DNA from: Spirochaetia bacterium
GTDB lineage: Bacteria; Spirochaetota; Spirochaetia; UBA9216
Direction: 5' to 3'
Assembly (NCBI GenBank): GCA_965140585.1
Contig: OZ223265.1
Span: forward strand, 256,001-320,000
DNA: 64,000 nt
The position numbers were made by a program, and so were the translations under genes. Shown here piece after piece: positions 34,036 through 58,029 of the stretch. The notes under the pieces were generated by a model that made no database searches, was not told where the DNA came from, and worked only from the letters and a program-made list of their open reading frames with translations. The first letter of the stretch is position 1. Each line of letters opens with the position of its first letter.

Positions 34036-34066
34036 AGTGTTATACAAATAAAAAAGGAGTCAGGCA

Positions 34067-34525: not shown

Positions 34526-34539
34526 ACGGAGTTGAAAAA

Positions 34540-36569: not shown

Positions 36570-36830
36570 TTAATTTCTGCGACTGTTTTCAAGTGAGATC
36601 AAAAAGCTGATACAGGAGATGAAGCGTGAGAGTCGCTTTGGAGAGGTGATAGAATTGCCGATGTAGATAGCGATTCATACCTCGGGAATGTTAAAACAAA
36701 CATATTTGAGGCGGATTATATCACCATTATTTACCGCTCAACTGCCTAATAATCTAAATAGCCAGAACACGTGCAGATCTGTAATTCACACGGAGATATA
36801 AATTCAGCAAATATAACCAGCTACATTATT

Positions 36831-37229: not shown

Positions 37230-37244
37230 GTTTTTTAAACTCCT

Positions 37245-37958: not shown

Positions 37959-37974
37959 TAACATGCTCCAGGAA

Positions 37975-38739
37975 TCACTGAAATAAATAATCCTCATAGT
38001 AGATATCGCTATAAATATAATGTAAACCTTTGTCTGTGATTGTATACTTTACGTTTCCGCCGGCCTTTTTCAGTTTATTAATATAATTCACTTCATCTTC
38101 AAGTTTTATTGATGGGTCATTCCGATCATGAAACGCCCATATTGGAATATTTACAATTTTTTTGGGGTTATTATTCATAACAACCGGATAGCCCCCTCCG
38201 CTGATAGGGGATGCAGCGGCAAAAAGATCAGGGCAATCAGCAGCAAAATCCCATGTACCCATTCCTCCCATACTCACACCTGTCAGATAAATCCGTGATT
38301 CATCAATACTGTAAACTTCTATAATTTCATCTGTAAGCTTTTTCAGTTTTCCTGAAATAATTGACCATCCTGTTGTCTTGGGACAAAGCGGAGAAACAGT
38401 GATAAAAGGAAAATCCTCTTTTGTAGAGGCATAGTGTGCAAGACCCCATCCTTCACCATCAGGATTATTCAATACTTTTTCGATTCCGGTTTCGCGTTCC
38501 TCCAGGCTATGGAGAAAAATGATCAACGGATAATTTGCACCGGGCTCATTGAAGTAATTAGCCGGCAGTGTAATTATATAATTCAGTTTAGACTTCTGAG
38601 AATGTTCAAATTTAATCTCGCTCCCATTTTCCCCAGTCGCAGGATCAGGCAGCTCAATTATATTATTCGGAACACATGAATTTAGAATTGGAATTATTGT
38701 CAGTATCACCATTAATGAAAATTTAGTTTTCTTTTTCAT
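37975..38739 (-). CDS. Lipoprotein alpha/beta-hydrolase (esterase/peptidase)
   Basis: LNSC lipobox; YPLIIFLH, RIYLTGVSMGGMGTW, PIWAFH. Confidence 0.8.
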   Translation of the reverse strand: MKKKTKFSLMVILTIIPILNSCVPNNIIELPDPATGENGSEIKFEHSQKSKLNYIITLPANYFNEPGANYPLIIFLHSLEERETGIEKVLNNPDGEGWGLAHYASTKEDFPFITVSPLCPKTTGWSIISGKLKKLTDEIIEVYSIDESRIYLTGVSMGGMGTWDFAADCPDLFAAASPISGGGYPVVMNNNPKKIVNIPIWAFHDRNDPSIKLEDEVNYINKLKKAGGNVKYTITDKGLHYIYSDIYYEDYLFQ

Positions 38740-39499
38740 TACGAACCGAATTATTTTTCTTTAATAAATATATTGAAATGATAATCATCATAAGCAGAAT
38801 TCCAAGCCCTCGGAACATTGATAAAGGGCCGTTTAACTTATCGGTACCGAAATTAACAAGGACATCCCATACCGCTCCAACTCCCCAGTAAAAAGGAAAC
38901 ACTATCAGAATGTTGTTTGTTATCCTGAAAACTGAAGCATACATAATTCCAACAAAGAACAATTTAAAAAACTCCGGCTGAAAACCAGCATGGTGAAAAC
39001 TGTAAAATACCGCAGTAAGCAGTATTCCGGGAATAATGCCGAACGATTCTTCAAAAATCTTTCTCAAGAATCCGTATATAAATACCATCTCAAAAATACC
39101 TGACACAAGAATATAAAGAATGGGAAAAATAACTGAGGGCTTTAATAGAATATCACTGCCCATATCGCCGGATTCAAAAAGAAACTGCATAAGCAGAAGT
39201 CCCGCTAAAATAATTCCTGCAATTAAACTGGCGATGGATTTTTCCTTTTTAATACCAAAAAAGGAGACCTTCTCTTTTTTTATTACAAGGATATAATACA
39301 TCGGCAAAGCAAATCCAAGGATTGTCCTTATTAGAAAATCAAGAATTACGAAATTCAGGATGCCAGCCGCGACTGAATCACCGCTATAGAGATACATTGA
39401 ACTGCTTAACAGTATTACTGCAATCCCTGAGATTAAAGCAACTGCAGTGTCTTTAGTGAACTTGAACCTGAAAGTAAACAAAGACCTAATTCTACTCAT
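38723..39499 (-). CDS. CPBP-like intramembrane protease
   Basis: Polytopic; FEMVFIYGF, FYSFHH; degenerate EExxxR. Confidence 0.65.
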   Translation of the reverse strand: MSRIRSLFTFRFKFTKDTAVALISGIAVILLSSSMYLYSGDSVAAGILNFVILDFLIRTILGFALPMYYILVIKKEKVSFFGIKKEKSIASLIAGIILAGLLLMQFLFESGDMGSDILLKPSVIFPILYILVSGIFEMVFIYGFLRKIFEESFGIIPGILLTAVFYSFHHAGFQPEFFKLFFVGIMYASVFRITNNILIVFPFYWGVGAVWDVLVNFGTDKLNGPLSMFRGLGILLMMIIISIYLLKKNNSVRNEKEN

Positions 39500-39506
39500 A
39501 GCAGTT

Positions 39507-40187
39507 TTACCTCCTGTGTAGAAATACTGATGCTATTTTAATACAGAAAATATACCATGGGATAAGCGAAAGCATTGAGAAAATCAAGCCTATCGTTCCG
39601 AATGTTGAAGGGATGCTCATAAGCAGTGCAGATATTAATCCAAATACAGCTGTACTACGGCTGAAGACAAAACTCTTCAACATCACGATTGTATAGAACA
39701 TAAGAGAAACGGCATTCAAAAAATAGTAAACAGTAAATGCGGTACCCTTCCATTCAAGCATAAGAATATCTGCGGACTGCTTCAATTCTGAAAATTCAAA
39801 AGGGGAAATCGAGGCTGAAACGTTCCTGGTTAGGAAAAACATTTCAACACATTTATTGGAGGAAAAATAAGCAGTAGTTCCTATCAACCCCAACATGAGG
39901 GCTATTAGAATTAAGCTTTTATTATCATTAAACAGCGCTGCAGCAATGGCAAGATAAATTACAGCGAGTATAGCATTATTTACAAGATATAAACCATCCA
40001 GGTGAAGGATCCCCAATAAGGGATTGTCCATAAAAAGATAAATCCAGGCTTCCGTATTCTCCGGCATTGGAAAGAGCACGTATATTATAATTTGTACCGG
40101 GATTATAACAAGCATCAGTACAGTTAAGATTCCGGATAGTTTAAAAAGGAATTTCCATTCAGTGAAAATAGAATTACTATTTTCCAT
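39507..40187 (-). CDS. Polytopic membrane protein (DUF4386-like)
   Basis: Six hydrophobic segments; NPLLGILHLD. Confidence 0.55.
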   Translation of the reverse strand: MENSNSIFTEWKFLFKLSGILTVLMLVIIPVQIIIYVLFPMPENTEAWIYLFMDNPLLGILHLDGLYLVNNAILAVIYLAIAAALFNDNKSLILIALMLGLIGTTAYFSSNKCVEMFFLTRNVSASISPFEFSELKQSADILMLEWKGTAFTVYYFLNAVSLMFYTIVMLKSFVFSRSTAVFGLISALLMSIPSTFGTIGLIFSMLSLIPWYIFCIKIASVFLHRR

Positions 40188-44480: not shown

Positions 44481-45869
44481 TTAGAACATCAGATCAATTT
44501 TCTCTTTAAACGTCAATAGCTCGTCCTCTACTGACAGAGTATCATCTTCTACAAGCCTCCGCAGCAGTTCCGCCCATTCTGTCGCAAATTCAAAAAAATA
44601 GGGTTCAGGAGTAAAAAGAATTGATGTGCCTTCTATTGTTACATTAAAAGCCTCAAGATAACTTTCAGATTCACTTATCATTTCTATGAACGCAGGATCA
44701 TAAAAAACAGACTGACGCGGAGGGTTAACTGATTTTGCACTGACTGCAGCATCAAGCTGGAATTCTCTTCCTGTAAAATATTGCACAAACATCCAGGCAG
44801 CATTTTTACTTTCGGACCTGCTGTTAATTGCAAGCCCCCACACCCATAAATTTGACTGCAGAGCCCTCCCCTGTGCGGACTCCGGCATCGGAGCTTTCAC
44901 CCAGGCAATATTTCCCGCCTCACGTGAACCGCCTTCAACATTCTGAAAATAACTGACAATATCTGCATCAAAAAGCATTGCTGCCTTACCCGCACCAAAA
45001 TCTCTTGATGCATGATACCAGGTGTATGACGGCCACTGCGGCGAGGCACCTGCTCTGATAATTTCTATCCATTTACTTATCATCTCTACAGCCTGGGCAG
45101 AATCAACAGCAGAAATAAGCCTGCCGTCACTGATTTCAAAATCTACAGCTCCATAATTTGCATAAGTTGTCATAAAACCGGGATGAGTAGTAGCCCAGTT
45201 ACACGTTCCCCTCAATGCAATAGCATAGGTTCCCGGACCTCCGAACTCATCAAGTGAATAACAGAGCTCAAGTAACTGCTCCATCGTAGTCGGAGGAGAC
45301 AGCCCCATTTCTGTGAAGATTCTTTTGTTATAGGCAAGAACATACTGTTCGAACCCCATTGGAATAGCCCAGAGAGGACCGCTTCCGGGACGATGTCCTG
45401 TGACGGTATCCCACCTGAATGCCCCTATGATGTTGGGAAAGAAATCCTGTACGTTGTAATCTTCAGATGTGATTCGCCTGTCTTCAAGGAAATCATCAAA
45501 ATCGGCAAGAAGACTGCGTGCACTGTAATCCCAAATCTGATACGCTCCGGTCATGAAGACATCAGGATCTCCGGATTCTGATTCGAGCATGTAATTTATT
45601 CTGTCAAAATAGTTCTCTTCAGGAGTGAAGGAGTAATGAACCGAAATACCTGTAAGATTCTCAAATTTCTTCAACTGCTTTATTACAGCTGCGGAATAGG
45701 GATGCTGATTAAATTCGACTTCTATTACTTCACCGGCCTGAGAGTCCCAGCTGAAGCCCGGAGATTCTACGGCGGTTTCTGTTTCCTGTTCTGAAGAGGA
45801 TTTTTTTGTACCGCACCCCGAGAAGAGGATTAAACCTGCAATAAGAATAAAAATAAGCGATATTTTCAT
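44481..45869 (-). CDS. Sugar-type solute-binding lipoprotein (no adjacent permeases)
   Basis: FSGC lipobox; PDVFMTG, LAYNK, GKAAM, WGLAINS. Confidence 0.85.
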   Translation of the reverse strand: MKISLIFILIAGLILFSGCGTKKSSSEQETETAVESPGFSWDSQAGEVIEVEFNQHPYSAAVIKQLKKFENLTGISVHYSFTPEENYFDRINYMLESESGDPDVFMTGAYQIWDYSARSLLADFDDFLEDRRITSEDYNVQDFFPNIIGAFRWDTVTGHRPGSGPLWAIPMGFEQYVLAYNKRIFTEMGLSPPTTMEQLLELCYSLDEFGGPGTYAIALRGTCNWATTHPGFMTTYANYGAVDFEISDGRLISAVDSAQAVEMISKWIEIIRAGASPQWPSYTWYHASRDFGAGKAAMLFDADIVSYFQNVEGGSREAGNIAWVKAPMPESAQGRALQSNLWVWGLAINSRSESKNAAWMFVQYFTGREFQLDAAVSAKSVNPPRQSVFYDPAFIEMISESESYLEAFNVTIEGTSILFTPEPYFFEFATEWAELLRRLVEDDTLSVEDELLTFKEKIDLMF

Positions 45870-45875
45870 ATCAAC

Positions 45876-46265
45876 CTAACCGGTCAGTTCTTCTATTTTC
45901 TCAGCAATCTGACTGAAGTCCCATGGTTTGGTTATCACACTCTCAAGTCTGAGCTTTTCTCTCAAAGCAGATATAGCACCATCATCTCTCTGTCCGGTTA
46001 TTATCATTTTATGTGTTTCAGGATGCTTTTCATCAGTTTTCAGAAGGAATTCATCACCGCTCATACCGGGCATAACCCAGTCGGAAATGATGAGAAAAAC
46101 AGAACCGCCTTCTTCGTAAATTTCATCAATAATCTCCAGAGCTTCAATTCCGTTTACAGCAGTTTCATATGAAAAATCTCCGCCGAAATAATTCATAAGC
46201 TCCAGCTTTAATGCATAGAGAATAATGGCTTCATCATCAACGCATATAATATATTTACTCTTCAT
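45876..46265 (-). CDS. Single-domain response regulator
   Basis: ICVDDE, ISDWVMPGMSG, ITG, KPW. Confidence 0.92.
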   Translation of the reverse strand: MKSKYIICVDDEAIILYALKLELMNYFGGDFSYETAVNGIEALEIIDEIYEEGGSVFLIISDWVMPGMSGDEFLLKTDEKHPETHKMIITGQRDDGAISALREKLRLESVITKPWDFSQIAEKIEELTG

Positions 46266-48075
46266 CAATCCTCCTGAATAGTATTGAAAAAACTGTATTA
46301 CCGGGAATACTGCTGAAAGTTACATCACCGTCTATCCTGTTCAAAATATTCTTTACCAGATTAAGGCCTATTCCGCTTCCCTCTCCGTATTTCTTGGTGG
46401 TAAAAAAGGAATTAAAAATCATCGACTGTATTTCTTCAGGTATTCCTGGTCCGGTATCTGAAAAGGAGACAGAAAGACCATCCGGAACTTCATTTACTTT
46501 TATCTCAAGTCTGCCGGAATAGCGCATCGCCTGAAGGGCGTTGTTGATCAAATTTATCCAGATTAAATTCAGCTGATCTTCGAAGCAGATAATTTTTTTC
46601 TCCGAATTATAGAATTTCTCAATTGTTACATTGCCTACAGTTTTCGTGAAATAGAGTTTTAGTACATTATCAATTGATTCTGAAGGACTTATTGCTGTAA
46701 GGGCTCCTTCGGATTCCGTATATGCCAGGGCTCTGAGAGATTTTATTACAACAGCCATCTTCTCCTCAGAGTTTTCGATGACTTCACCAATCGAATACAG
46801 GGTGGATATAATTGAGGCAGTTTCTACTATTCCGGATCCATGATTCAGTTTTAAAATTTTTATAAACCGTTCCAGATCTTTCGGAGGAAATTTCAATTCC
46901 ATGAAATATTGCGAGAACAGCTCCGGATTATTTATTTCATTTTCAATCAGACAGGCTTTAACCTTATTTCTAAGCCGGCGATCAGTGGAAAGAAACATAC
47001 CCTCTTTGTCCTTCCGGATTCCCAGAATCATTGTTTTGAACGCTTCAACCTCCGCAGAGTTCCATTCAATTATTTCACCGCTGATTGTCTTTAGAATCTC
47101 ATCAAGCTGATTCCTGAGCGTCCTGGTAGATGACTTTATTGCTCCAAGCGGTGTGTTAACTTCATGAGAGAGACCTGCAGCCAGCTGTCCAAGAACTGCT
47201 TTTTTTTCGGAAAATATCAGCTGATCCTGTGTCTGCTTGAGTGAGTTCATCGCCGTTTCAAGCTTTTTATTTGTTCTGATAAGGTTATTATTAGCGGTCT
47301 CAAGTTCACTGTTTGATTCCTCAAGCTGGGCGGTCCGTTCATAAACCTTGAGTTCAAGTTCCTCATTTTTCAACCGCAATGAATCCCACAGCTTTTGACT
47401 GAATTTCACAGAGATAAAGATGGTAAAGGCTACGATAAGTGCAACAATAGCCATGGATATTTTCATTCTTCGGTTGTTGGATAATACAATCTCAGAGTTC
47501 AGATTCTCAGAATTCAAAGACAGTGCTTCCAGCATTCTTTCTGAATAAACCTGTGAAAGTGATTCCAGGTTTTTCCGAATCCTGATAAGGTTGGCAAAAT
47601 CTTTACCGGAATCGGTACCTCTGTTCCGATCGGCCTGAATCATAAGCAGAACTCCGATTTTCTCGGAATCAAAAAAATTATCAGACGTAAAAATCACGGA
47701 AAAATCGTGATATAACTCTTTAAAAATATTCAGCTGCAGCATCCATAAAGTTTCTATCTGATTAAACTGGGCATCTGATTTCTCTGAAAACAATTCTCTT
47801 GAGGGATGGGTCTGCATTATTTGATAAATCTCTTCAAAATCACTCACAGACTGCTGCCACTGAAAATACATAATCTCAAGAGAAATATCACTTGAAAGAA
47901 GGGCTAAAGTACGATCATTCATCCGGGTATAATAGTTAATACAGAGAAGTGAAGTCTCTCTAAGATTTTGAACCTTCTCAGTATAGCTATAGGAATATAA
48001 TAACACTGCAAAGGCTGAAAAAAATCCTAGAATCATTATCAGTATTGATACCAGAATTTTTGAGAATATTTTCAT
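46255..48075 (-). CDS. Membrane sensor histidine kinase
   Basis: Two TM segments; LSHEVNTPL H-box, NLINNA, DTGPG, FFTTK, GSGIGL. Confidence 0.93.
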   Translation of the reverse strand: MKIFSKILVSILIMILGFFSAFAVLLYSYSYTEKVQNLRETSLLCINYYTRMNDRTLALLSSDISLEIMYFQWQQSVSDFEEIYQIMQTHPSRELFSEKSDAQFNQIETLWMLQLNIFKELYHDFSVIFTSDNFFDSEKIGVLLMIQADRNRGTDSGKDFANLIRIRKNLESLSQVYSERMLEALSLNSENLNSEIVLSNNRRMKISMAIVALIVAFTIFISVKFSQKLWDSLRLKNEELELKVYERTAQLEESNSELETANNNLIRTNKKLETAMNSLKQTQDQLIFSEKKAVLGQLAAGLSHEVNTPLGAIKSSTRTLRNQLDEILKTISGEIIEWNSAEVEAFKTMILGIRKDKEGMFLSTDRRLRNKVKACLIENEINNPELFSQYFMELKFPPKDLERFIKILKLNHGSGIVETASIISTLYSIGEVIENSEEKMAVVIKSLRALAYTESEGALTAISPSESIDNVLKLYFTKTVGNVTIEKFYNSEKKIICFEDQLNLIWINLINNALQAMRYSGRLEIKVNEVPDGLSVSFSDTGPGIPEEIQSMIFNSFFTTKKYGEGSGIGLNLVKNILNRIDGDVTFSSIPGNTVFSILFRRIDEE

Positions 48076-48253
48076 CCGGAACTCCGCCACTTTAGAACTT
48101 GACTTTTACGGCATTCAATACATTTGCTATCCTGTATATCATTATATGAAAATAAAATTGAAATTCCAAATTTATATCTCTGCATGCCAGTTCAAATTCT
48201 GTATCGAGGGTTCCGGTGATAAATAAAGAGAAATCTGGAAAATATTGCAGACG

Positions 48254-49531
48254 CTAGTCTTTTTTAGAAATCACACCCATCATCGGTGATTCTTTTACCA
48301 TGAGTATCAGAATCAGTGCGGCAACGGCCAGCAGACTGAAAAGGATCATCATTGTACCCAGATATATATTACTTCGAACACTCATAAGCGCTGTAAAAAG
48401 AAGTCCGGTGATCTGGCCTGCCAGAAGGAGAAGCCCCTGGGAGCTGGATTCGGGTGCCGGGTAGCTGACTTCGGCAGCATACTGAAAGCCCACAGGACCG
48501 GCACTCATAACAAAGAAACCGAGTACGAAGGCTGAAACAAGGGCCGCTGTATAGACAGCATCAGCAGAACTGAACAAAAGATCTGAAAAAGCAAGACCGG
48601 CAACCCCGGGAATCATTCCGGCCATGCAAATAACCAGAAACAGTTTGCGTTTCCGAAACTTATCGGAAAGCATCGGAATTACAATCGCACCTATTACCCC
48701 GCCCACTATCATCAGAACTCCTATCATGCCGTCTGAGTCATCAACTCCCAATGCACCTGAAATTGAGTCAACCATTGAACTTACAGCGTTGAATATCCCG
48801 AGGCCGATAAAAAACAGAACGATAGTCAGAACCATGTCTCTGCTTCCGAAGATGTATTTGAATCCCTCGGAAAATTTGGTATGCACATACTCTTCACCGG
48901 AAGGCTGCGTCGGCGGCTTTTCCTTGATAAGTACGAATGCTGCAGCTGCTGTCACTGCGCTTATAAGACCGTAGATCATCAGCATTGTATCAATTCCCTG
49001 TCCGTAGTCGGGATCGGAAGGGGAACCTGAAACAAGCATCGGCGTCACAGCCATGGCTATGGCAATCCCTATATACTGGGCAAGTGCAGCAAGCCCGGCG
49101 GCTGTACCGCGTTCTTCAAGCGGAAACCACCGCACTGTAACGGCAGTCACTGCATTGAGTATAAACGGCTGGGCAACAGCCAGTCCCGTCTGGGCAATCA
49201 TAACAAGAATAAAGCTTTCGCCACCGAAGCCCTTAAGCAGGCTGAACGCCGCGGTAAGAATACAGCCTATACCTAGTCCGGTTTTTATTCCAAAGGTGTC
49301 GATCACAAATGAAGCAGGAATACATACAATCAGAAATACAAACATGTACGACATTGCCAGAAAATCAATATTGAAGACAGACTCCGGACTGAACTGACCT
49401 GAGTAGAAAGCTTCAGCAGCCCGGGCTACCGAAGCATGCGCAAGCCACTGTATCTCTATCACCACCGTAACTGCCATGAAAGCGGCAAGAACAACCCACC
49501 TGTAACCATATACCTTGTAATCTTCCTGCAT
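48254..49531 (-). CDS. MFS transporter (FLVCR-like)
   Basis: YKVYGYRWVVL, AQPFILNA, RWFPLEERGTA, YAAEVSYPAPE. Confidence 0.85.
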   Translation of the reverse strand: MQEDYKVYGYRWVVLAAFMAVTVVIEIQWLAHASVARAAEAFYSGQFSPESVFNIDFLAMSYMFVFLIVCIPASFVIDTFGIKTGLGIGCILTAAFSLLKGFGGESFILVMIAQTGLAVAQPFILNAVTAVTVRWFPLEERGTAAGLAALAQYIGIAIAMAVTPMLVSGSPSDPDYGQGIDTMLMIYGLISAVTAAAAFVLIKEKPPTQPSGEEYVHTKFSEGFKYIFGSRDMVLTIVLFFIGLGIFNAVSSMVDSISGALGVDDSDGMIGVLMIVGGVIGAIVIPMLSDKFRKRKLFLVICMAGMIPGVAGLAFSDLLFSSADAVYTAALVSAFVLGFFVMSAGPVGFQYAAEVSYPAPESSSQGLLLLAGQITGLLFTALMSVRSNIYLGTMMILFSLLAVAALILILMVKESPMMGVISKKD

Positions 49532-49563
49532 TTCTTCCTCCCGGACCTGATAGCAACTTCAGC

Positions 49564-51168
49564 TTAACTGCCGCTGTTCATCATGGAGAATAAGATCCTG
49601 TTCTGTCTGTATAGATTCTTGAAAACTTTATAGTTGCGGTCATAAACCTTCTTATTGCTCAGATCGGGGTAATACACATCCTGCTGCTTAATTCTGGAGG
49701 GTATTTCATCGAAGGAGCTCATCATCCCAAGCCCGAAAGCTGCTGTGAGAGCGGCGCCGAGGGCTCCGGAATTATGAGGGTTTTCAGGCACTTCAATTTC
49801 ATGACCGGTGACATCAGCCATGATCTGTGCAGTTACCGGAGAAAGTGCACCGCCTCCCGCAAATCTCAGCCGTTTATTGCATTTTACCCTTGTTTCGATG
49901 CTTTCCAGCATCCACCTGTTGCTATAGGCAAGGCCTTCAACAACAGCCCTTATCATATCCCTCTTGCCGCTACTCAGTCCGATGTTGAAAAAGATACCCC
50001 TTGCATTCGGGTCCTCAAATGGTGAACGGCTGCCGTGTAGCCATGGAGTAAAAATAACCCCGTCACAGCCGGGAGCTGTATCACTGATAACTTCATTTAA
50101 ATATTCAAAAAGATTTCGGTATATCGATTCCGGATCATCAGTCACTGAAGTTTTCTTAAGATAAATTCCAATTTCATCCAGTGCAAGATGATCCTTCACC
50201 CACTCCAGACACTTCCCTGATGTTTCCTGCTCACAGAAATAATGATAACGATCGGGAACAGCGCATGTGATGGATGCAATCTTGTGCTCAAGATCAAGCC
50301 TCCTATGCTTTGTCACGGCAGAAACCCAGCCTGAAGTTCCCATGTAGATATGGGCCGAGTTTTCACTGACAGCACCGGCGCCAAGCCCAATCATCGAAGC
50401 ATCTCCGCCGCCGCCGAATACGATTGTACCCGGTTCCAAGCCCATAGCCTCAGCCCATTCCGGAAGCAGAACCCCGGCCGGTTCATGTGATTCAATAATA
50501 GAAGGTAGATGCTCATAATTTACACCGTAGCGTCTGCACAGTGATTTGCTCCAGCAGTTTTTACCCGGCCGGTTGTCAAAAAGACCTGCTGCGCAGGCGG
50601 AATCGCGGGTAGCAACAGCCTTTCCGGTAAGCCTGAAGATTATAAAATCCTTTACGTCAAACCAGTATGCAGTCCTTTTGAAGATATCAGGCTCATTCTC
50701 TTTAACCCAATGATACTTCCATAGCGGATCTTTTACGCTTGTAGGAGCAATTCCTGTAATTTTTATGCTTGAAAGAAGGGTAAAAACCGGAATCCCTTCA
50801 ATTTTTAACCCGCGGCCGAAATCAGCTTTCTGCTTCACAGCCCGCTGATCCATATAACTCATCGCAGACCTTACCGGGAGACCTTCTGCATCGGTAAGAA
50901 CAAGCCCCTGCATTTGAGATGAAAATGAAACAGCCTTTACAGCGGCAGGCTCCATGCCTGATTCATTAATCACTTCCTTTGTGGTCTCGGTAAGGGCTTC
51001 TATCCAGTCCTCCGGATTCTGCTCCGCAGCACCGCTGGCAGATATCGTAATTGCATACTCCTGCATCGAACTTCCAAGCAGTTCAAACACATCACCGATC
51101 CGGTACAGACAGGTTTTTATACTCGTCGTTCCTATATCATAGGCAAGGATGCAGGTTTCGCTTTTCAT
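49564..51168 (-). CDS. FGGY-family carbohydrate kinase
   Basis: AYDIGTTSIK, AEQNPEDW, SSQMQG, GGGDA, AGGGA. Confidence 0.92.
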   Translation of the reverse strand: MKSETCILAYDIGTTSIKTCLYRIGDVFELLGSSMQEYAITISASGAAEQNPEDWIEALTETTKEVINESGMEPAAVKAVSFSSQMQGLVLTDAEGLPVRSAMSYMDQRAVKQKADFGRGLKIEGIPVFTLLSSIKITGIAPTSVKDPLWKYHWVKENEPDIFKRTAYWFDVKDFIIFRLTGKAVATRDSACAAGLFDNRPGKNCWSKSLCRRYGVNYEHLPSIIESHEPAGVLLPEWAEAMGLEPGTIVFGGGGDASMIGLGAGAVSENSAHIYMGTSGWVSAVTKHRRLDLEHKIASITCAVPDRYHYFCEQETSGKCLEWVKDHLALDEIGIYLKKTSVTDDPESIYRNLFEYLNEVISDTAPGCDGVIFTPWLHGSRSPFEDPNARGIFFNIGLSSGKRDMIRAVVEGLAYSNRWMLESIETRVKCNKRLRFAGGGALSPVTAQIMADVTGHEIEVPENPHNSGALGAALTAAFGLGMMSSFDEIPSRIKQQDVYYPDLSNKKVYDRNYKVFKNLYRQNRILFSMMNSGS

Positions 51169-51824
51169 TTATCTTTCATCCTGATTTTTGAATATTTTTT
51201 AAGGTAGATCTGATGCATCAGTCCGGCCTCAAACTTATTTATTGATTTTGCACCGCCAAGGAACTCCGCCTCAATAAAAGCTTTACAGCCCTTCTCTAAA
51301 ACCTCGGCAGCGGTGAAAACCTCATCGATATCGCGGCCCAGACAGACTGCACCGTGATTTGCCATCAAAGCCGCATTCCGCCCCCTAAGCGCCTTCAGTG
51401 TCTTTTTCACAATTGCCTTCGTACTGGGCAAAGCATAATCTGCCACCCTGACAGTCGGTCCAATAATCTGGGCAAGATCATCAAGCACTGGCGGAACCTC
51501 ACGTCTTGCCGCGGCGGCAACACTGGCATTTGTACTGTGGGTGTGGATAACAGCATTAATATCCCTGCGGTCTCGGTAAATTGCTGAATGCAGTTTGTAT
51601 TCGCTGGAAGGTTTTGCAGAACCGCTCCAGCTGTCATCGGAAATCTTCACAAGTGCAAGGTCTTCAGGCTGTATCGAAAGATAATCGGCGCCGCTTGGAG
51701 TAACAAGCATCTCATCATCGGAAAACCGCAGACTGATATTACCCCAGGTTCCGGTAGTCAGGCCTGATTCAACAAAACGAAATCCCGCATCACGCAGAAT
51801 TATTCTTGCATCAGCTTCTGTCAT
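51165..51824 (-). CDS. Class II aldolase (FucA-like)
   Basis: GTWGNIS, VTPSG, PSSEYKLH, IHTHS, MANHG. Confidence 0.9.
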   Translation of the reverse strand: MTEADARIILRDAGFRFVESGLTTGTWGNISLRFSDDEMLVTPSGADYLSIQPEDLALVKISDDSWSGSAKPSSEYKLHSAIYRDRRDINAVIHTHSTNASVAAAARREVPPVLDDLAQIIGPTVRVADYALPSTKAIVKKTLKALRGRNAALMANHGAVCLGRDIDEVFTAAEVLEKGCKAFIEAEFLGGAKSINKFEAGLMHQIYLKKYSKIRMKDK

Positions 51825-53281
51825 ATCATCTTCCTTACATTTGAAAATACCCGTTTAAAACCTGCGAGAGCTTCATCAATTACCTCATCGGTATCCTCAG
51901 CATTCGTATACAGTCTGCTGCCTGCCAGTGTTATCAGTCCCTCCATGGTATAAGCGGCTCCGAAAAGCTCCATAGATGCCTTTCGGTCATGGGCATTCTT
52001 TATAGTATTTTTAATAGTCCAGAATTTTTTGATGTTTATATCAAGAAGCATGGCTGCACTGGTTTCTAGATGGCAGATCGCACCCTGGTTGAAGGCAACA
52101 AAGGGAAGCGCCAGCTCACTGATTATTTTCTGCAATCCTGCAGTCAGTCTGTCTGCGGCAGCTCCCGCCTTCTCGCAGGCCTTCTGCTCTTCCATCTCGC
52201 AGAGGGTGAAATACCCTGCGGCGGAACTTAGAGGGTTGGCGGCCATTGTTCCGCCAATGAGAGCCTTCTTCTGTCCCGTCTGGATTCCGGCTGCCAGAAA
52301 TTTCATGTATTCGCGCTTTCCGCCAAGCCCTCCTGCCGAAGGATAACCGCCCGCCACAACCTTTCCGAACACTGTCAAATCGGGGCTTACACCAAAATAC
52401 CCCTGAGCTCCGGACATTCCTATCCTGAAGGCGGTAACTACTTCATCAAAAACAAGAAGTGCACCGTACTTATCACAAAGTCTTCTGACACCCTCATTAA
52501 AATCACGGTCCAGCGGTCTGGTTCCGCTCTCGGGACCCATCGGTTCAATCAGTACAGCAGCGGTTCCACCCCGAAGCTGATTGCGCTTGAGGACTCTTTC
52601 GAGACTGCCCAGATCATTGGGATAAAACTCCTGGGTATTTTTAAAGATGTATCTCGGAACACCGTGGGCTTCGAAGTGCATGCTTCCCGGCAGACGTATT
52701 CCGTAGGCAAGTTGATCGCTCCAGCCGTGATAGGCTCCGCCCATTTTCACAATATTCTTTTTGCCGGTCGCAAGCCTTGCGACTCTTATTGCCGCCATAC
52801 ATGATTCAGTTCCGCTTCCAAGCATTCGAAACATTTCTACCGACGGAAAAAGCTGTGCAATCTTGTCGGCAAGCAGAAACTCGTATTCATGAAAGAGGCC
52901 GGTTGAAGGACCGCAGTCATTAAGCAGGCTGATAACCTTCTCACGCACTGATGGCATATTGCTTCCGAGGACTGTCGGTCCGCCGGCCTGCAGAAAATCG
53001 ATGTATTTATTTCCGTCGGTATCATAGAGGTAGGCGCCTTCGGCCTTTGTTATTACCAGCGGAAAGGGATGGTTGAATGCAAGGTTATGCTGAACTCCTC
53101 CGGGTATCCGCTGCTTTGCAGTCTCAATCATAGCCTTTGACCCGGAACATTTTTCTTCGAAATAGGAATCGATCTTTTTTGAGTATTCATCAGTGAATGC
53201 CGGCACCGGAAGCTTTACAAGCCTCTGCAGATCAGAAGTTACGGTTGCTGTATCAGGATATTCTGAAATAGAGAATGACAT
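51821..53281 (-). CDS. Class III PLP aminotransferase (HemL-like fold, not canonical HemL)
   Basis: SGTESCM, AYHGWSD, FDEVVTAFR, FGKVVAGG; GGVQHNL instead of GGVNSPVR. Confidence 0.88.
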   Translation of the reverse strand: MSFSISEYPDTATVTSDLQRLVKLPVPAFTDEYSKKIDSYFEEKCSGSKAMIETAKQRIPGGVQHNLAFNHPFPLVITKAEGAYLYDTDGNKYIDFLQAGGPTVLGSNMPSVREKVISLLNDCGPSTGLFHEYEFLLADKIAQLFPSVEMFRMLGSGTESCMAAIRVARLATGKKNIVKMGGAYHGWSDQLAYGIRLPGSMHFEAHGVPRYIFKNTQEFYPNDLGSLERVLKRNQLRGGTAAVLIEPMGPESGTRPLDRDFNEGVRRLCDKYGALLVFDEVVTAFRIGMSGAQGYFGVSPDLTVFGKVVAGGYPSAGGLGGKREYMKFLAAGIQTGQKKALIGGTMAANPLSSAAGYFTLCEMEEQKACEKAGAAADRLTAGLQKIISELALPFVAFNQGAICHLETSAAMLLDINIKKFWTIKNTIKNAHDRKASMELFGAAYTMEGLITLAGSRLYTNAEDTDEVIDEALAGFKRVFSNVRKMI

Positions 53282-53304
53282 AATGTCCCCCTGTAGATTT
53301 TAAA

Positions 53305-53328
53305 AAAAGTGAGCAGCCACTCACTTTT
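53305..53328. promoter_or_regulatory. Probable TetR operator of aminotransferase operon
   Basis: AAAAGTGAG-CAGCCA-CTCACTTTT perfect 9-bp inverted repeat 24 nt upstream of start. Confidence 0.7.
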
Positions 53329-53380
53329 CAAGTTTACCACGTCTCCACAGAAAGTCAATTATTCTTATGCTGTAACAGGG

Positions 53381-54022
53381 CTATTTAAGTGCATTTTTAA
53401 TGAAATTCATCATGCCGGCAACAACACGCTCATCATCATCGAAGATATTTTCATCAACATATATCTTCATGCGCTCCTTCCAGTACTCCGAAGCGTATGA
53501 AAACTGAAGAGCCATGAACAGGTTATCCATACAGAATGCAGACATGCCGGCATCACCACCCGGCTTCAGCTCACCGGATTCGACAGCCTCACTGATAAGC
53601 CTGCGGTAGTATTCGGCTGAAACCGATTCCATCTGGTATGAAAGTTTTGAGGCAAGCTCACTGTTGCCCTCTGTGGTTATTTCTATATAAAGGTTAATAA
53701 GTTCGCTGTATCTCCGGGAATGGGAAAGAATTGTACGAATTACATTTTCAACTTTTTCAAATATTCCGCCGCCGCCCTCTTCCACAGCCTGAAGACTCTC
53801 AGAAAGCTGACGGACCGCATCCATACAGACTGTAAGAAAAAGATTCTCCTTAGTTGTGAAATACTTATAAAGAGCCCCGACACTTACACCGCATTTATCT
53901 GCGATGATATTAATATTAGCAGCCTGATATCCGAAAACTGAAAATTCGGCGGCTGCAGTGGTCAGAATCCGGTTTTTCTTTTCGTTGGATAGTTTCTCAA
54001 ATACTCTGGTATGGTAAATCAT
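53381..54022 (-). CDS. TetR/AcrR family regulator
   Basis: EFSVFGYQAANINIIADKCGVSVGALYKYFTTKENLF. Confidence 0.92.
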   Translation of the reverse strand: MIYHTRVFEKLSNEKKNRILTTAAAEFSVFGYQAANINIIADKCGVSVGALYKYFTTKENLFLTVCMDAVRQLSESLQAVEEGGGGIFEKVENVIRTILSHSRRYSELINLYIEITTEGNSELASKLSYQMESVSAEYYRRLISEAVESGELKPGGDAGMSAFCMDNLFMALQFSYASEYWKERMKIYVDENIFDDDERVVAGMMNFIKNALK

Positions 54023-54080: not shown

Positions 54081-55373
54081 ATGGAAAGAAAAAAAACAGC
54101 CTGGGAGGAAGCCGACAAAGACCAGAAACTAAGTTATTCAGGATTCATGATTCATGGAATTTTTCTTGCACTTGCGGTTACCTTCACTGAAATCAACACA
54201 GTTCTTCCGGCCATGGTAGTACAGGCCGGTGGTGCGGCAATCCATATAGGAATACTGTCTACTATAATGACCGGACTGCCACTGGTTTCCCAGCTGATGT
54301 TCTCACCGTTCCTGCAATCAAGGAAGAGAAAGAAACCATTTCTGCTGGGTGGAATATACGCCAGGATGATTTCATTCTATCTGATAGGATTTCTGCTTCT
54401 TAACTCGGGACTTTTCAATAAAGCACTGGTGCTGCTGCTTATCTATGCGGGGCTGATTGTCTTTACGCTCAGCGGGGCCTTTGCCGGCATCACCTATGTA
54501 ACCCTTATAGGTACAACAATTCCCGACAGCCTGCGGAAGCGCTTTTTTCTGAACAAGCAGGTATTCTGGAGTATAGGAGTATTTATCTCGGGGATTCTGA
54601 CCCGTTTTATAATCTCGGCTGAAAAGGGGCTTGAACGCTACGGCTTTCTTTTTCTGGCAGCGGCATCAATGCTTGCAGCAGGTTCCATAGGCTTCTGGCT
54701 GATCCGCGAGAAAAAGGATACAGGCGCCGCAAAAGAGGGAATACTTAAAGTTCTCGGCTCTATGCGGGAAATCCTCAAAACCGATCACACCTTCAGAAAC
54801 TACACAATTACTGCAAACCTGCTCTCCTCGGCTATCGTTATGATTCCCTTCTATATTCCGTCCTTCATGAAGGAGTACAAAATAAGCGGAGACTTCATTG
54901 GGGTTATAGTCCTGCTTCAGATAGGCGGAATGGTTATTTCCAACCTGATCTGGCCTTCGGCAGTGAGGAAGGCAGGATTCAAGGGGATGCTTAGAATTCA
55001 GTCTATTATGGGATTTGCCCTTCCTGTGGCCGCAGCCGTGATGACAGCAGTCGGGGCAGGACGGGTTACAATGTTTATTATCATACCTCTGCTCGGTGCC
55101 CTTGCCGGCGCACAGAAGATGTCGTCGGAAGCAGTTCTTGTTCAGATTAGCCCTGACGGAAAACGGGCACTGTATTCAGGAATTTACGGGGCGCTTAATC
55201 TGACGGCAGCGCTTTTCCCGCTGCTTCTAGCCCCGGCGTTAACCTTCTTCGGCTGGAAGGCTGTATTTCCAGCCGCGGCACTGCTGCCCCTTGCAGCGCT
55301 TCTGTCAATCAGAAAGATGATATGCCCCGTTGACCCGGAATGGCGGCAGACACATCCGGCCGGTGAGCTTTAA
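54081..55373 (+). CDS. MFS transporter
   Basis: About 12 hydrophobic segments in two halves; RKRKKP loop. Confidence 0.8.
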   Translation: MERKKTAWEEADKDQKLSYSGFMIHGIFLALAVTFTEINTVLPAMVVQAGGAAIHIGILSTIMTGLPLVSQLMFSPFLQSRKRKKPFLLGGIYARMISFYLIGFLLLNSGLFNKALVLLLIYAGLIVFTLSGAFAGITYVTLIGTTIPDSLRKRFFLNKQVFWSIGVFISGILTRFIISAEKGLERYGFLFLAAASMLAAGSIGFWLIREKKDTGAAKEGILKVLGSMREILKTDHTFRNYTITANLLSSAIVMIPFYIPSFMKEYKISGDFIGVIVLLQIGGMVISNLIWPSAVRKAGFKGMLRIQSIMGFALPVAAAVMTAVGAGRVTMFIIIPLLGALAGAQKMSSEAVLVQISPDGKRALYSGIYGALNLTAALFPLLLAPALTFFGWKAVFPAAALLPLAALLSIRKMICPVDPEWRQTHPAGEL

Positions 55374-55581: not shown

Positions 55582-58029
55582 TTATACCGCAAAATACTTG
55601 GCCTGCGGATGGTGGGCAACAAGGGCTGAAGTACTCTGCTCCGGAACCATCTCGTAATTCTCAGTCAGGCTTATACCGATTCTTTCAGGTTTTATAAGTT
55701 CAAATACTATCTCATGGGCACTGAGGTCCGGACATGAGGGGTAGCCGAAGCCGTATCTTGAGCCCTGATACTGCTGGGTAACATAGCCGTGGATATTCTC
55801 AGGCTCATCAAGGGCAATTCCAAGCTCCTTCCTCATCTGCTTATGCCAGTATTCAGCAAGGGCATCAGTCACCTCTACACTGAAGGCATGAAGCATCAGG
55901 TAATCATGATATTCATTTGCCTCATAGAGTTCGGCTGTGCGCTTTGAAACCTCCGGTCCTATTGTTACAACAAAGAGGCCTGCGACATCGCCGCCTTCTT
56001 CCGCATTTTTGTAGTAATCCGAAAGGCAGAGAAAGGGAGCCTCCGACTGTCTTGGAAAATCAAAGTTGTATTCCTTTCCTGAATCCTTAAGCACCAGAAG
56101 GTTGTCTCTGCTTTCACAGTCAAACCAGCCCCAGGCGGCAGCCGGACGGACAAGCCTCCCTTCCACAAATTCCTTCCTGAAGGATTCATAGAGGGGTTCA
56201 ACCTTTGTCTTTATAAGTTCATCATATTCTGAGGCGCTCATCTTACCCCGGCGGTAGCCCCAGCGGCCGCGGAAAAGCGCCTGCTTGTTAACAAGAGTCA
56301 GGACCTCTTCAAGATCGATATCCTCTGTCACCCTGCCGCCCTTAAACGGAGGTTCGGGTACCGGGTTGTCGCGGACTATGGTCATATCCTTTCTGCCGGG
56401 TTTTACCGATACGGCATCAGGATTTGCTTCCCAGGTGGTGGCTTCAAGTGTTCCCGCTTCAAATTCCCGCACATGCTTCAGGCCGTCAAAGGCATCTGAA
56501 TTATAAACGACCGGGCCAGGATAAACCGGAACACAGCTCTCGGATACAAATTTCCTTGTAAGAGCCGCACCGCCGAGAAAGATTGGAATCTTGAGCCCGG
56601 CCTCAGCATACTGCTCCATACTGTCTTTCATTACCATCGCCGATTTTACAAGAAGGCCTGAAAGTCCGATTATATCTACATCAAACTCCTTAGCCTTTTC
56701 AATTATCGTCTCAGCCGGGACCTTGATTCCTATATTGTAAACTGTGTAGCCGTTGTTACTTAGAATAATCTCTACCAGGTTTTTCCCGATATCGTGAACA
56801 TCGCCCTGAACTGTCGCAAGCAAAATCTTTACAGCAGCTCCGTCATCCTTCTTCTCCATCAGAGGTTCAAGGTAGCTGACCGAAGCCTTCATAGTTTCTG
56901 CCGACTGCAGAACAAACGGCAGAAGTAGCTCGCCCTTTCCGAAAAGCTCTCCGACATGCCGCATTGCGGGTATCAGGATTTCATTGATGATTCCAATCGG
57001 TGAACGCCGCTGAAGAAGCATATCAAGAATGTCTTCGAGATCCTCCCTGCTTCCGTCGACAATATGATCGTAGAGCTGCTGTTCGGCAGGTTTCCAGGTC
57101 TGATCGTCGCTTTCGTCGCTGTCGCTTCTGTTTCCGAAGTGATCAATAAAGGTCAGAAGCGGAGACTTTGTCTCATCCTTTACCCTGTCATACAGAAGAT
57201 CCAGACAGATTTCCCGGTCCTCTTCGGAAATGGATGCAAGCGGGATGATCTTTGCCGCGTCGATAATGCAGGCATCAAGCCCGGCTTCAAGCGCCTCATG
57301 CAGAAATACAGCATTAAGAATCTTCCTTGATTTCGGAGAAAGCCCGAAGCTGATATTGCTAAGTCCGAGCACGGTGAGACAGCCGGGAAGCTGCTGCTTT
57401 ATCAGCTTCATTGCATCGAGAGTCTGAACCGCTGCATCCCGGAGGTTCTCATCGCCCGCACCTACCGTAAAAGTCAATGGATCAAAGAGGATATCCTGCG
57501 GACGCAGGCCATGCTCATCGACAGCAATGCTGTGGATCCGCTTCGCAACTTCCAGTTTTTTTTCCGCGGTCATTGCCATTCCATCCTCATCGATGGTAAG
57601 GGCAACAACGGCAGCTCCGTATTTCTTGACAAGCGGAAGCACGCGGTGAATGTTCTTTCCGCCGTCCTCAAGGTTTACTGAATTTATTATACTGCGTCCG
57701 GGATAAATCTTAAGCGAATGCTCAATCACCTCGGGCGTAGTTGAGTCAATCATGAGCGGGGTCTTCAGCGATGTCGAGAACATTGGAATAAGTGTACTCA
57801 TGTCGGCAAACTCATCACGCCCGGCATAGGCGGTACAGAGGTCAAGCACATGAGCCCCCGCACTCTGCTGCTCCTTGGCTATGGTCAGACATGAGTTCCA
57901 GTCATCGTCCAGAAGGCATTCGCGGAAACGTTTGGAACCGTTTGAATTGCAACGCTCGCCGATTATCAGAGGCTTTATCGGCTGAATGAGATCAACACTT
58001 TCATAAAGACTTGCTACAGAAGGTTTCAT
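55582..58029 (-). CDS. metH: B12-dependent methionine synthase, pterin-binding + cobalamin-binding + reactivation domains
   Basis: IIGERCNSNGS, LGLSNISFG, GDVHDIGKNLV, GLSGLL, RYGFGYPSCPD. Confidence 0.92.
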   Translation of the reverse strand: MKPSVASLYESVDLIQPIKPLIIGERCNSNGSKRFRECLLDDDWNSCLTIAKEQQSAGAHVLDLCTAYAGRDEFADMSTLIPMFSTSLKTPLMIDSTTPEVIEHSLKIYPGRSIINSVNLEDGGKNIHRVLPLVKKYGAAVVALTIDEDGMAMTAEKKLEVAKRIHSIAVDEHGLRPQDILFDPLTFTVGAGDENLRDAAVQTLDAMKLIKQQLPGCLTVLGLSNISFGLSPKSRKILNAVFLHEALEAGLDACIIDAAKIIPLASISEEDREICLDLLYDRVKDETKSPLLTFIDHFGNRSDSDESDDQTWKPAEQQLYDHIVDGSREDLEDILDMLLQRRSPIGIINEILIPAMRHVGELFGKGELLLPFVLQSAETMKASVSYLEPLMEKKDDGAAVKILLATVQGDVHDIGKNLVEIILSNNGYTVYNIGIKVPAETIIEKAKEFDVDIIGLSGLLVKSAMVMKDSMEQYAEAGLKIPIFLGGAALTRKFVSESCVPVYPGPVVYNSDAFDGLKHVREFEAGTLEATTWEANPDAVSVKPGRKDMTIVRDNPVPEPPFKGGRVTEDIDLEEVLTLVNKQALFRGRWGYRRGKMSASEYDELIKTKVEPLYESFRKEFVEGRLVRPAAAWGWFDCESRDNLLVLKDSGKEYNFDFPRQSEAPFLCLSDYYKNAEEGGDVAGLFVVTIGPEVSKRTAELYEANEYHDYLMLHAFSVEVTDALAEYWHKQMRKELGIALDEPENIHGYVTQQYQGSRYGFGYPSCPDLSAHEIVFELIKPERIGISLTENYEMVPEQSTSALVAHHPQAKYFAV

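Follow-up and report, generated by a model that had tools for sequence, protein, structure and literature searches.

A candidate TetR-repressed catabolic operon with transaminase, kinase and aldolase genes in a Spirochaetia bacterium, and a possible role in sphingoid base breakdown

Organisation of the operon

The window analysed here is a stretch of 64,000 nucleotides (nt) from a Spirochaetia bacterium (contig OZ223265.1 of assembly GCA_965140585.1), and its positions 48254-54022 hold five open reading frames (ORFs) that all run in the same direction on the minus strand. The ORF coordinates and a Pfam scan identify a TetR-family repressor, a class III aminotransferase dependent on pyridoxal phosphate (PLP), a class II aldolase-family enzyme, an FGGY-family kinase and a transporter of the major facilitator superfamily (MFS). 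A first-pass annotation made from the sequence alone had described the same order and coordinates, and each of the gene families that it assigned was matched in Pfam. The genes, and the features between the first two of them, are as follows.

53381-54022, minus strand: tetR, TetR-family repressor gene, first gene of the unit, 213 amino acids (aa); PF00440 TetR_N, 1e-12
53331-53358, minus strand: promoter-like TTGACT-16 nt-TAAACT with TG before the second hexamer; consensus scan, 9/12 matches
53305-53328: predicted operator palindrome with perfect 9-nt arms; core GTGAG-N6-CTCAC at 53309-53324
51821-53281, minus strand: class III (HemL-like) PLP aminotransferase, 486 aa; PF00202 Aminotran_3, 1e-49
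51165-51824, minus strand: class II (zinc) aldolase-family enzyme, 219 aa; PF00596 Aldolase_II, 2e-49
49564-51168, minus strand: FGGY-family kinase, 534 aa; FGGY_N and FGGY_C, 5e-40 and 6e-28
48254-49531, minus strand: FLVCR-like MFS transporter, 425 aa; MFS_1, 5e-27

The tight spacing reported in the first-pass annotation is real: ATGA stop/start overlaps join the aminotransferase gene to the aldolase gene (51821-51824) and the aldolase gene to the kinase gene (51165-51168). The gap between the kinase and MFS genes is 32 nt, and the 99-nt spacer between tetR and the aminotransferase gene contains both the promoter-like site and the palindrome.

Conservation of the gene set

A scan of one genome per species returned more than 552 relatives of the aminotransferase. 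We examined the best 80 loci (55-76% identity), counting their neighbours by BLASTP with the window proteins. These relatives come from Leptospira, SAR324, Desulfobacteraceae, Bacteroidota, Chloroflexota, many rumen and gut Clostridia and the Asgard archaea, including Lokiarchaeum ossiferum, and the habitats of the cluster hosts include rumen, soil, sludge, freshwater and sediment. An aldolase-family gene lies near the aminotransferase gene in 63 of the 80 loci and an FGGY gene in 60; both partners are present in 53 and at least one in 70, at a median distance of 1.1 kb. If the count is restricted to the 44 loci that extend for 5 kb or more to either side, both partners are found in 27 and neither in 6. 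Synteny of the three genes outside the window, on which the earlier proposal depended, therefore holds across many phyla and in Asgard archaea. The overlaps and the shared loci elsewhere indicate that the aminotransferase, aldolase and kinase genes are one functional unit. The set is also present in two records of a plasmid collection, Butyrivibrio fibrisolvens pNP243 and a Burkholderia ambifaria plasmid, whose annotations give the cluster enzymes generic family names only.

A second, paralogous cluster is found in 5 of 24 genomes of one Leptospira genus (L103:4215-12493, L104:4807-13196 and L105:6521-14735, where an L number denotes a fetched locus). Its aminotransferase is about 57% identical and its genes are ordered FGGY-MFS, TetR, aldolase-aminotransferase-partner chain-SDR-TetR, where SDR stands for a short-chain dehydrogenase/reductase. 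The cluster adjoins a gene for an extended SDR (Epimerase/3Beta_HSD/NAD_binding_4), and the layout resembles that of the Burkholderia plasmid cluster. In the MFS protein of the second cluster the binding-site Trp (described below) is replaced by Tyr and the second Gln by Asn, a hint that its substrate is related but not the same.

The promoter region and its predicted operator

The palindrome reads AAAAGTGAG-TGGCTG-CTCACTTTT; its 9-nt arms are 100% complementary, with 6 nt between them, and it begins 3 nt past the promoter-like site (53358-53331). Sites of this promoter-like form are no more frequent than in shuffled sequence, and the one found here counts for its position directly upstream of the predicted operator and not for its match alone. 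The core GTGAG-N6-CTCAC, in turn, occurs once in the 64-kb window against an expectation of 0.03, and 3 of 100 shuffles of the window contained a match. Another 22 loci, 10 from Leptospira and 12 from Clostridia, have the core at their cluster promoters. The Leptospira loci have a long perfect palindrome upstream of the aminotransferase gene, TTGACAnTGAGTGA-N4-TCACTCAnTGTCAA, whose centre matches the GTGAGTG..TGCTCAC of the window, and a GTGAG-N6-CTCAC site is also found there between the divergently transcribed kinase and transporter genes. In the 12 Clostridial loci the core is situated at, or just before, the start of tetR, and L046 carries an identical 16-mer. Throughout the 1.39 Mb of fetched loci all matches to the core but one are at cluster promoters; the single other match, L062:2183, has a 5-nt spacer.

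Homologues of the TetR protein are encoded in 31 of the 80 related loci. The window protein reached no NCBIfam equivalog cut-off, its best match being an autoregulator-binding protein of the ScbR type (58 bits against a cut-off of 150), but it has the TetR_N helix-turn-helix, and a conserved inverted repeat lies at the promoter, as is expected of a TetR-type repressor. We regard the palindrome as the predicted operator of a dedicated TetR regulon that is specific to the cluster, and the perfect operator palindrome that the first-pass annotation placed after tetR has thus gained support from other genomes. A run of T residues follows the palindrome, and we considered a role as the terminator of tetR. 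This was rejected as its main role because, in Leptospira and Clostridia, copies of the core precede first genes or divergent ones, at sites where there is no gene end; a terminator scan did not list the palindrome.

The aminotransferase is not a HemL enzyme

Membership of the class III aminotransferases is clear (PF00202, 169.7 bits against a gathering score of 30.5). HemL models are the top matches of the protein in NCBIfam and in the PDB, and several sources name its relatives HemL, so that an ordinary glutamate-1-semialdehyde aminomutase with unrelated sugar genes as neighbours has to be considered. The score on the HemL equivalog TIGR00713 is 268.8 bits, however, against a cut-off of 527.3. 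The Arg of the HemL NSPVRAF motif binds the substrate carboxylate, and where the solved HemL proteins 4e77 and 5i92 have GGVNSPVRAF the window protein has GGVQHNL-AFNH. The alignment to these two proteins ends near residue 405 of 486, leaving the C-terminal third unaligned, and the window protein has about 45 extra residues at its N-terminus. The Lys that forms the Schiff base with PLP is kept (FGKVVAGGYP aligns with the HemL GK motif). HemL identity, which the first-pass annotation had already doubted, was rejected on the score and the missing substrate-Arg motif; translational coupling to the aldolase gene and synteny with aldolase and kinase genes across phyla also speak against it, and we give that explanation practically no weight.

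Among the 120 matches listed for the aminotransferase, which are about 69-98% identical over the full length, are proteins from Leptospira, Paenibacillus, Spirochaeta and Eubacterium; identities to relatives in the various phyla are 57-79%, and the ESM Atlas returned unnamed class III aminotransferase clusters only. The two closest paralogues in the same genome are 40% and 35% identical and score 274 and 373 bits on the HemL model against 527, so neither of these two scanned HemL-like proteins reaches the cut-off. One of the two, L083:1255-2559 on contig 9, passes the cut-off for GntE (536 against 525 bits), which the NCBIfam model describes as a guanitoxin-pathway transaminase.

The aldolase-family enzyme occurs in four forms

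The window aldolase aligns with E. coli FucA and PDB entry 6btd at the conserved motifs GNIS, TPSG, PSSE, IHTHS and ANHG, and it retains the three zinc histidines, the catalytic Glu (in PSSE) and the phosphate-binding motifs of the FucA type. These residues support competence for a phosphorylated ketose. Its closest PDB entries are 6btd, which was deposited as a fuculose phosphate aldolase and which we take to be the 5-deoxyribulose-1-phosphate aldolase DrdA, and pneumococcal FucA (4c24), at E 1e-31; the AraD match, which covers half the length, is at E 1e-12. No FucA, AraD or other NCBIfam equivalog cut-off is reached: the scores are 83.9 bits against 400.25 (TIGR01086) and 145.1 against 264 (PRK06833) for FucA models, and 72.7 against 389.1 (TIGR00760) and 125.3 against 251 (PRK06557) for models of the AraD type. 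The window protein also has a family-specific C-terminal YLKKYS.

Four forms of this enzyme can be distinguished. In the single-chain form, found in the window, in many Bacteroidota and in the Lokiarchaeum, PP[IL]LDD[MQ]AQ and a C-terminal [LM]H..Y..KYS occur together with the catalytic residues. At 14 loci two adjacent genes share out these features, one chain of about 190-230 aa having the zinc and phosphate residues while the other, of about 195-230 aa, has lost them and has both motifs; Burkholderia shows the same division, with its partner chain annotated as 'hypothetical'. Two aldolase domains are fused in one protein in L065 and L066, which brings the loci with two aldolase-family segments to 16. 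Most Clostridia have a 330-aa protein consisting of a catalytic domain and a C-terminal piece with both motifs. Examples of the forms are at L058:12969-14250, L005:11448-12793, L021:12231-13443, L065:12938-14215, L027:8545-9534 and L090:11274-14082. Throughout, LDD[MQ]AQ and Y..KYS are on the non-catalytic part.

In class II aldolases it is the neighbouring subunit that completes each active site; the Tyr113 of FucA, for example, comes from such a subunit. Because the motifs are split between chains and class II sites are completed in this way, the active site of this family seems to be assembled from two parts, one catalytic and one for specificity. The non-catalytic partner chain suggests an obligate heteromer in which the active site would be completed in trans.

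The kinase and the transporters

Both FGGY_N and FGGY_C domains are present in the kinase, which scores 317.1 bits on the xylulokinase XylB model TIGR01312 against a cut-off of 380.25 and has E. coli XylB (2itm, E 9e-47) as its best PDB match. All of the FGGY genes tested from the clusters score nearest to xylulokinase. By these scores the kinase is a xylulokinase-like member of the FGGY superfamily that is not assignable to XylB.

The MFS protein matches five distinct PDB sequences at E<=0.001 and all five are FLVCR1 or FLVCR2 (E 2e-34 to 3e-33). An excerpt of a study of these proteins (PMC11168923) describes a ligand site in which the ammonium group is contacted through cation-pi interactions by W125 and Y349 and the hydroxyl is bonded by Q214 and Q471, with F348 lining the pocket; it adds that binding is abolished with betaine, where a carboxylate stands instead of the hydroxyl, and that FLVCRs are uniporters able to run either way. 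In the HMMER alignment W29, Q121, F247 and Q373 of the window protein correspond to FLVCR1 W125, Q214, F348 and Q471, so that four of the five residues are kept, and N248 replaces Y349. When only ORFs that cover the column are counted, W29, Q121, F247, N248 and Q373 are invariant in the 18 cluster-linked orthologues (18/18, 18/18, 17/17, 17/17 and 15/15, respectively), and the Tyr-to-Asn change in the putative ligand site is a family-specific one. The FLVCR-like label given by the first-pass annotation is apt, with FLVCR1/2 as the only PDB relatives and four of the five residues of the choline/ethanolamine site in place. Because the MFS protein keeps the equivalents of the FLVCR1 ligand site, an amino-alcohol substrate is predicted, and the conservation argues for a ligand with an amine next to a hydroxyl and no carboxylate.

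An FLVCR-like MFS gene is near the aminotransferase gene in 18 of the 80 loci. A sodium symporter gene of the SNF family, whose members usually carry small amines and amino acids, directly follows the aminotransferase gene in 9, in Clostridial operons, and a GtrA-like small membrane protein is encoded in 24. Three Clostridial operons (L042:11509-12618, L043:11520-12626 and L062:10485-11588) have a gene of the ADP-ribosylglycohydrolase family between the aminotransferase gene and that of the SNF-family symporter.

Neighbouring genes that bear on the substrate

A Pfam survey was made of 371 representative ORFs within 5 kb of the module (E<=1e-10), to which were added scans of 40 ORFs at 1e-3 (37 re-scans of ORFs without hits and 3 ORFs from L090) and an earlier set of 55 ORFs. 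The neighbour survey found no further gene beyond the module that is conserved everywhere. An endoglycoceramidase-like gene of glycoside hydrolase family 5 (GH5) is present in five of the 80 fetched loci, from three phyla: L005 and L008 (Leptospira), L019 (a Cytophagales metagenome-assembled genome, or MAG), L023 (a Bacteroidales MAG) and L068 (a Leptolinea MAG). Rhodococcus endoglycoceramidase II is the best PDB match of both GH5 proteins searched, those of L005 (E 8e-18) and L023 (E 3e-43). The GTDB genus of L005 has the aminotransferase in 24 of 24 genomes and the GH5 in 21, and in 17 the GH5 gene is on the same strand no more than 3 kb downstream of the aminotransferase gene; these 24 genomes share ancestry and count as about one lineage. 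The locus of the Bacteroidales MAG (L023:1769-19079) is of the SusC/SusD type and encodes a PKD-domain protein, the GH5, the aminotransferase, the FGGY kinase, the aldolase, an unannotated 664-aa protein and the FLVCR-like MFS transporter. We consider it a candidate glycosphingolipid utilisation locus. The GH5 neighbours, which are related to the endoglycoceramidase family at a level short of established membership, support a glycosphingolipid source for the substrate.

Genes for aldehyde dehydrogenases (ALDHs) lie inside the operon in Burkholderia (L090, with kinase, aldolase, aminotransferase, partner chain, SDR and ALDH) and in L033, another Bacteroidales MAG, and one is found 5 kb off in Butyrivibrio. 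The best-scoring model for each of the three is that of the MdlD type, which fits class 3 ALDHs (ALDH3), and the L033 protein has as its top PDB matches 6k0z, human fatty aldehyde dehydrogenase (4qgk, E 2e-104) and a class 3 ALDH from rat. A gene for a FadD11-like long-chain acyl-CoA ligase is directly upstream of the aminotransferase gene in L012. The ALDH3-type genes support a free, probably hydrophobic, aldehyde as a product of the pathway.

Other genes were noted near individual clusters. There is a fatty-acid-hydroxylase-superfamily gene near that of L001, and in L060 an Exo_endo_phos protein and then an alpha-galactosidase-type gene directly follow the aminotransferase gene; the Exo_endo_phos family includes sphingomyelinases. 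Two sulfatases are encoded near the cluster of L028 and an amidase near that of L072, the Burkholderia plasmid has an amidase 7 kb from the aminotransferase, and SDRs are found near the cluster in six further loci.

Other features of the window

A second MFS gene (54081-55373, plus strand, 430 aa) is divergent from tetR; it matches Pfam MFS_1 only, had no NCBIfam match, and the spacer that separates it from tetR does not contain the GTGAG-N6-CTCAC core. Directly downstream of the operon (44481-48090, minus strand) are genes for a 611-aa histidine kinase, a stand-alone receiver-domain protein and an extracellular solute-binding protein, and no link from these to the operon was found. The minus strand at 55582-58029 encodes an 815-aa methionine-synthase-like protein whose match to the MetH model is confined to positions 326-1182 and scores 778 bits (cut-off 1011); the domains for pterin binding, B12 and activation are there, but the N-terminal homocysteine-binding domain is missing. 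Positions 32001-40000 have a G+C content of 0.36-0.37, compared with about 0.45 for most of the window, and may be a horizontally acquired island.

A proposed pathway and its rivals

We propose, tentatively and at rather less than even confidence, that this is a TetR-repressed catabolic operon for compounds with a 2-amino-1,3,4-triol head group, with a phytosphingosine-type sphingoid base as the leading candidate. The general scheme, in which an amino-polyol is converted to a ketose, a ketose phosphate and then dihydroxyacetone phosphate (DHAP) and an aldehyde, is the part that we consider probable. The FLVCR-like MFS transporter would take up the amino-alcohol, a task that would fall in Clostridia to the SNF-family sodium symporter and the GtrA-like membrane protein. 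The aminotransferase would move the C2 amino group to a 2-oxo acid, so that the nitrogen is kept as an amino acid, and its product would be a 1,3,4-trihydroxy-2-ketone, formally a 5-alkyl-5-deoxy-ketopentose. The FGGY kinase would phosphorylate the C1 hydroxyl and the zinc class II aldolase would cut between C3 and C4, giving DHAP and an aldehyde; with a sphingoid base as substrate, this aldehyde would be a long-chain fatty one. Its further processing may fall, in some organisms, to the products of neighbouring genes: an ALDH3-type dehydrogenase, SDRs or an acyl-CoA ligase. The substrate or an intermediate would free TetR from the GTGAG-N6-CTCAC operator, which is predicted to overlap the transcription start.

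The geometry of a sphingoid base suits such a scheme: D-ribo-phytosphingosine has the D-erythro 3,4-diol that aldolases of the FucA/DrdA type make and cleave, and its 2-keto form is formally 5-alkyl-5-deoxy-D-ribulose. Plant, fungal or other glycosphingolipids are the leading candidate source. The sphingoid-base idea of the first-pass annotation gains circumstantial support from the GH5, ALDH3 and acyl-CoA ligase genes and from the amino-alcohol site of the transporter, and loses from the neighbours that are missing; as a substrate, a sphingoid base is possible but falls clearly below an even chance in our estimation. A fuller claim, that the operon represents the first complete prokaryotic route for phytosphingosine-type bases, free of sphingosine 1-phosphate (S1P) lyase, with a specialised and often heteromeric aldolase, an odd-chain aldehyde product, spread by horizontal gene transfer among bacteria of rumen, soil, freshwater and sediment and to Asgard archaea, and coupling in some genomes to endoglycoceramidase-like enzymes that would strip glycosphingolipids, we hold as speculative and slightly less secure again.

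A number of observations weigh against this interpretation. Endoglycoceramidase I was the only NCBIfam match of the three GH5 proteins scanned, at 38.3, 63.7 and 138.7 bits against a cut-off of 700, and 75 of the 80 loci have no such GH5 in the fetched stretch. The genome from which the window comes, 98.5% complete, gave no match to the GH5 of L023 as query. Ceramidase Pfam families were absent both from the 371 neighbour ORFs at E<=1e-10 and from the 40 ORFs at 1e-3. ALDH3-type genes are in or near three clusters only and the acyl-CoA ligase is at one, and most loci are without GH5, ALDH3, acyl-CoA ligase or other lipid-related neighbours. The substrates known for FGGY kinases and class II aldolases are water-soluble sugars, FLVCR proteins carry small head groups, and we know of no lipid precedent. 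Ten of the 80 loci have neither partner gene, although four of these have less than 5 kb on one side, and six loci from saprophytic Leptospira (L001-L004, L009 and L010) have the kinase with no aldolase nearby. An Asp-Asp pair (PPVLDDLAQI) occupies the position of FucA Tyr113 in the window aldolase. All of the steps, and the order transaminase, kinase, aldolase, are inferred, the order from family chemistry only.

As a rival, the same transaminase-kinase-aldolase logic could act on a small soluble substrate such as a 2-amino-2-deoxy-alditol, an amino-tetritol or -pentitol, or a serinol-like compound, with a short aldehyde (glycolaldehyde, lactaldehyde or acetaldehyde) as a product. The relatives of the transporter carry choline and ethanolamine and its binding residues are kept, the kinase family and aldolases of the FucA/DrdA type are known for soluble sugars, the tested cluster kinases are all nearest to xylulokinase, and most loci lack a lipid-related neighbour while Clostridia have SNF-family symporters. 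We nevertheless rate this as unlikely, though it deserves serious attention: we know of no abundant natural 2-amino-alditol that explains the spread of the cluster across habitats, and it leaves the GH5 genes in three phyla, the ALDH3, the acyl-CoA ligase and the GtrA-like protein of 24/80 loci unexplained. Individual small molecules were also considered. Ethanolamine, aminopropanol, serinol and 3-amino-1,2-propanediol were set aside on the ground that they do not need all three enzymes, glucosamine-type amino-aldoses and Amadori compounds on chemical grounds, and 4-hydroxythreonine and glucosaminate on the ground that an FLVCR-type site disfavours carboxylates.

Rearranged versions of the scheme would make the aldolase-family protein an epimerase or isomerase, or place the steps in another order. 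The kinase might act first and the transaminase on a phosphorylated amine, with the class II enzyme adjusting a sugar phosphate for the pentose phosphate pathway; in a terminal-amine version the aminotransferase would convert ethanolamine or aminopropanol to an aldehyde. The acid/base pair of AraD is an Asp and a Tyr, which the Asp at the Tyr113 site and the conserved C-terminal Tyr of the window enzyme resemble, so an epimerase-like reaction may be possible. L-ribulose-5-phosphate 4-epimerase scores approach those of the FucA type (125 against 145 bits in the window, 143 against 145 in L033), the kinase belongs nearest to xylulokinases, a group that phosphorylates C5, HemL-like relatives such as GntE act on aldehyde/primary-amine pairs, and the FLVCR-like site fits ethanolamine. 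Set against this are the PSSE Glu typical of FucA, where AraD has Asp, the much stronger PDB matches to 6btd and 4c24 than to AraD, and the ALDH genes inside two operons, which argue for a free aldehyde product; for ethanolamine or aminopropanol, moreover, the kinase would be superfluous. We find these versions improbable. The cluster could instead be biosynthetic, with a sugar phosphorylated, rearranged and aminated to an amino-polyol or iminosugar-like product for export by the MFS protein. A precedent is GabT1, which aminates fructose 6-phosphate in the synthesis of 1-deoxynojirimycin and is thereby a class III aminotransferase that makes 2-amino-2-deoxy-mannitol 6-phosphate, and the TetR protein is nearest to autoregulator-binding ScbR, at a score far below the cut-off. 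Transport by FLVCRs in either direction, as described in the excerpt of PMC11168923, would allow export too. No phosphatase or dehydrogenase is consistently present, however, and the SusC/SusD loci, glycoside hydrolases, ALDHs and sodium-coupled importers point to uptake and breakdown, as does a repressor and transporter layout that is typical of catabolic operons; biosynthesis is, in our judgement, very improbable.

Plants, fungi, animals and Bacteroidota all have sphingolipids among their major lipids, and to our knowledge the bacterial mineralisation of the sphingoid base itself is largely undescribed. Confirmation of a sphingoid substrate would thus be of high interest. If the proposed pathway is correct, what becomes of sphingolipids from the diet and from plants in the rumen, the gut and the soil would be open to direct test, and hundreds of genes mislabelled 'glutamate-1-semialdehyde aminomutase', 'fuculose aldolase' or 'xylulokinase' would gain a function. 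Transamination in place of isomerisation would be a new entry reaction to the kinase-aldolase pathway family, and an amino-polyol transaminase, a DHAP aldolase that handles unusual aldehydes and a TetR/operator pair responsive to a ligand may be of practical use. A pathway for a small amino-polyol, should that be the substrate, would likewise be one for which no description was found in the literature searched.

Comparison with known systems

The first-pass annotation knew of no described bacterial pathway of this form. We agree within the scope of the open full-text literature (that is, outside subscription-only papers), where neither the gene set nor any route that takes sphingoid bases or amino-polyols through a transaminase, a kinase and an aldolase was found described. 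The known breakdown of sphingoid bases uses a kinase of the DAGK type and a PLP-dependent lyase that cuts between C2 and C3 to give phosphoethanolamine and a fatty aldehyde, and the sph genes of Pseudomonas aeruginosa respond to sphingosine. If the sphingoid reading holds, the window pathway would share with the S1P lyase route of eukaryotes the phosphorylation of the base, its cleavage to a phosphorylated head and a fatty aldehyde, and oxidation of the ALDH3 type. It would differ in cutting between C3 and C4 after deamination, in using a zinc aldolase that yields DHAP and in having an FGGY kinase in place of one of the DAGK type; Pfam scans of the operon genes found neither a DAGK-type sphingosine kinase nor a PLP-dependent S1P lyase.

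Precedents exist for the other parts of the scheme. In fumonisin degradation by Sphingopyxis the class III aminotransferase FumI converts hydrolysed fumonisin B1 to a 2-ketone by removing the C2 amino group, according to an excerpt of the published account (PMC3136697), and so acts at the C2 amine of a sphingoid-like amino-polyol, as is proposed here. The window aminotransferase is only a distant relative of FumI (PDB 6hbs, E 4e-22). The fumonisin cluster has a carboxylesterase and is not known to have an FGGY kinase or a class II aldolase. GabT1, a class III aminotransferase of 1-deoxynojirimycin biosynthesis, interconverts a ketose phosphate and a 2-amino-2-deoxy-alditol phosphate, which is the chemistry proposed for the window enzyme, although GabT1 serves biosynthesis and is partnered by a phosphatase and a dehydrogenase. 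FLVCR1 and FLVCR2 (SLC49) are the only PDB relatives of the window MFS protein and share with it the Trp, two Gln and Phe of the ligand site; the window protein differs in being bacterial, in being without the N-terminal extension of about 100 residues found in the eukaryotic proteins, in having an invariant Asn for Tyr349 and in being encoded in a putative catabolic operon.

The closest parallels are the fucose (FucK-FucA), rhamnose (RhaB-RhaD) and 5-deoxyribose (DrdK-DrdI-DrdA) pathways, in which a kinase forms a ketose 1-phosphate and a zinc class II aldolase splits it to DHAP and an aldehyde; FucK and RhaB are FGGY kinases, as is the kinase of the window operon. The aldolase of the window departs from these systems in its Asp-Asp for Tyr113 and its family-specific C-terminal motif, and in many genomes the enzyme is split into two chains. 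Whereas the known pathways have an isomerase, the window operon has no isomerase gene and has a class III aminotransferase instead, so that the ketose would come from an amine and not from an aldose. We infer that the operon follows the logic of the fucose, rhamnose and 5-deoxyribose pathways with a transaminase in the place of the isomerase.

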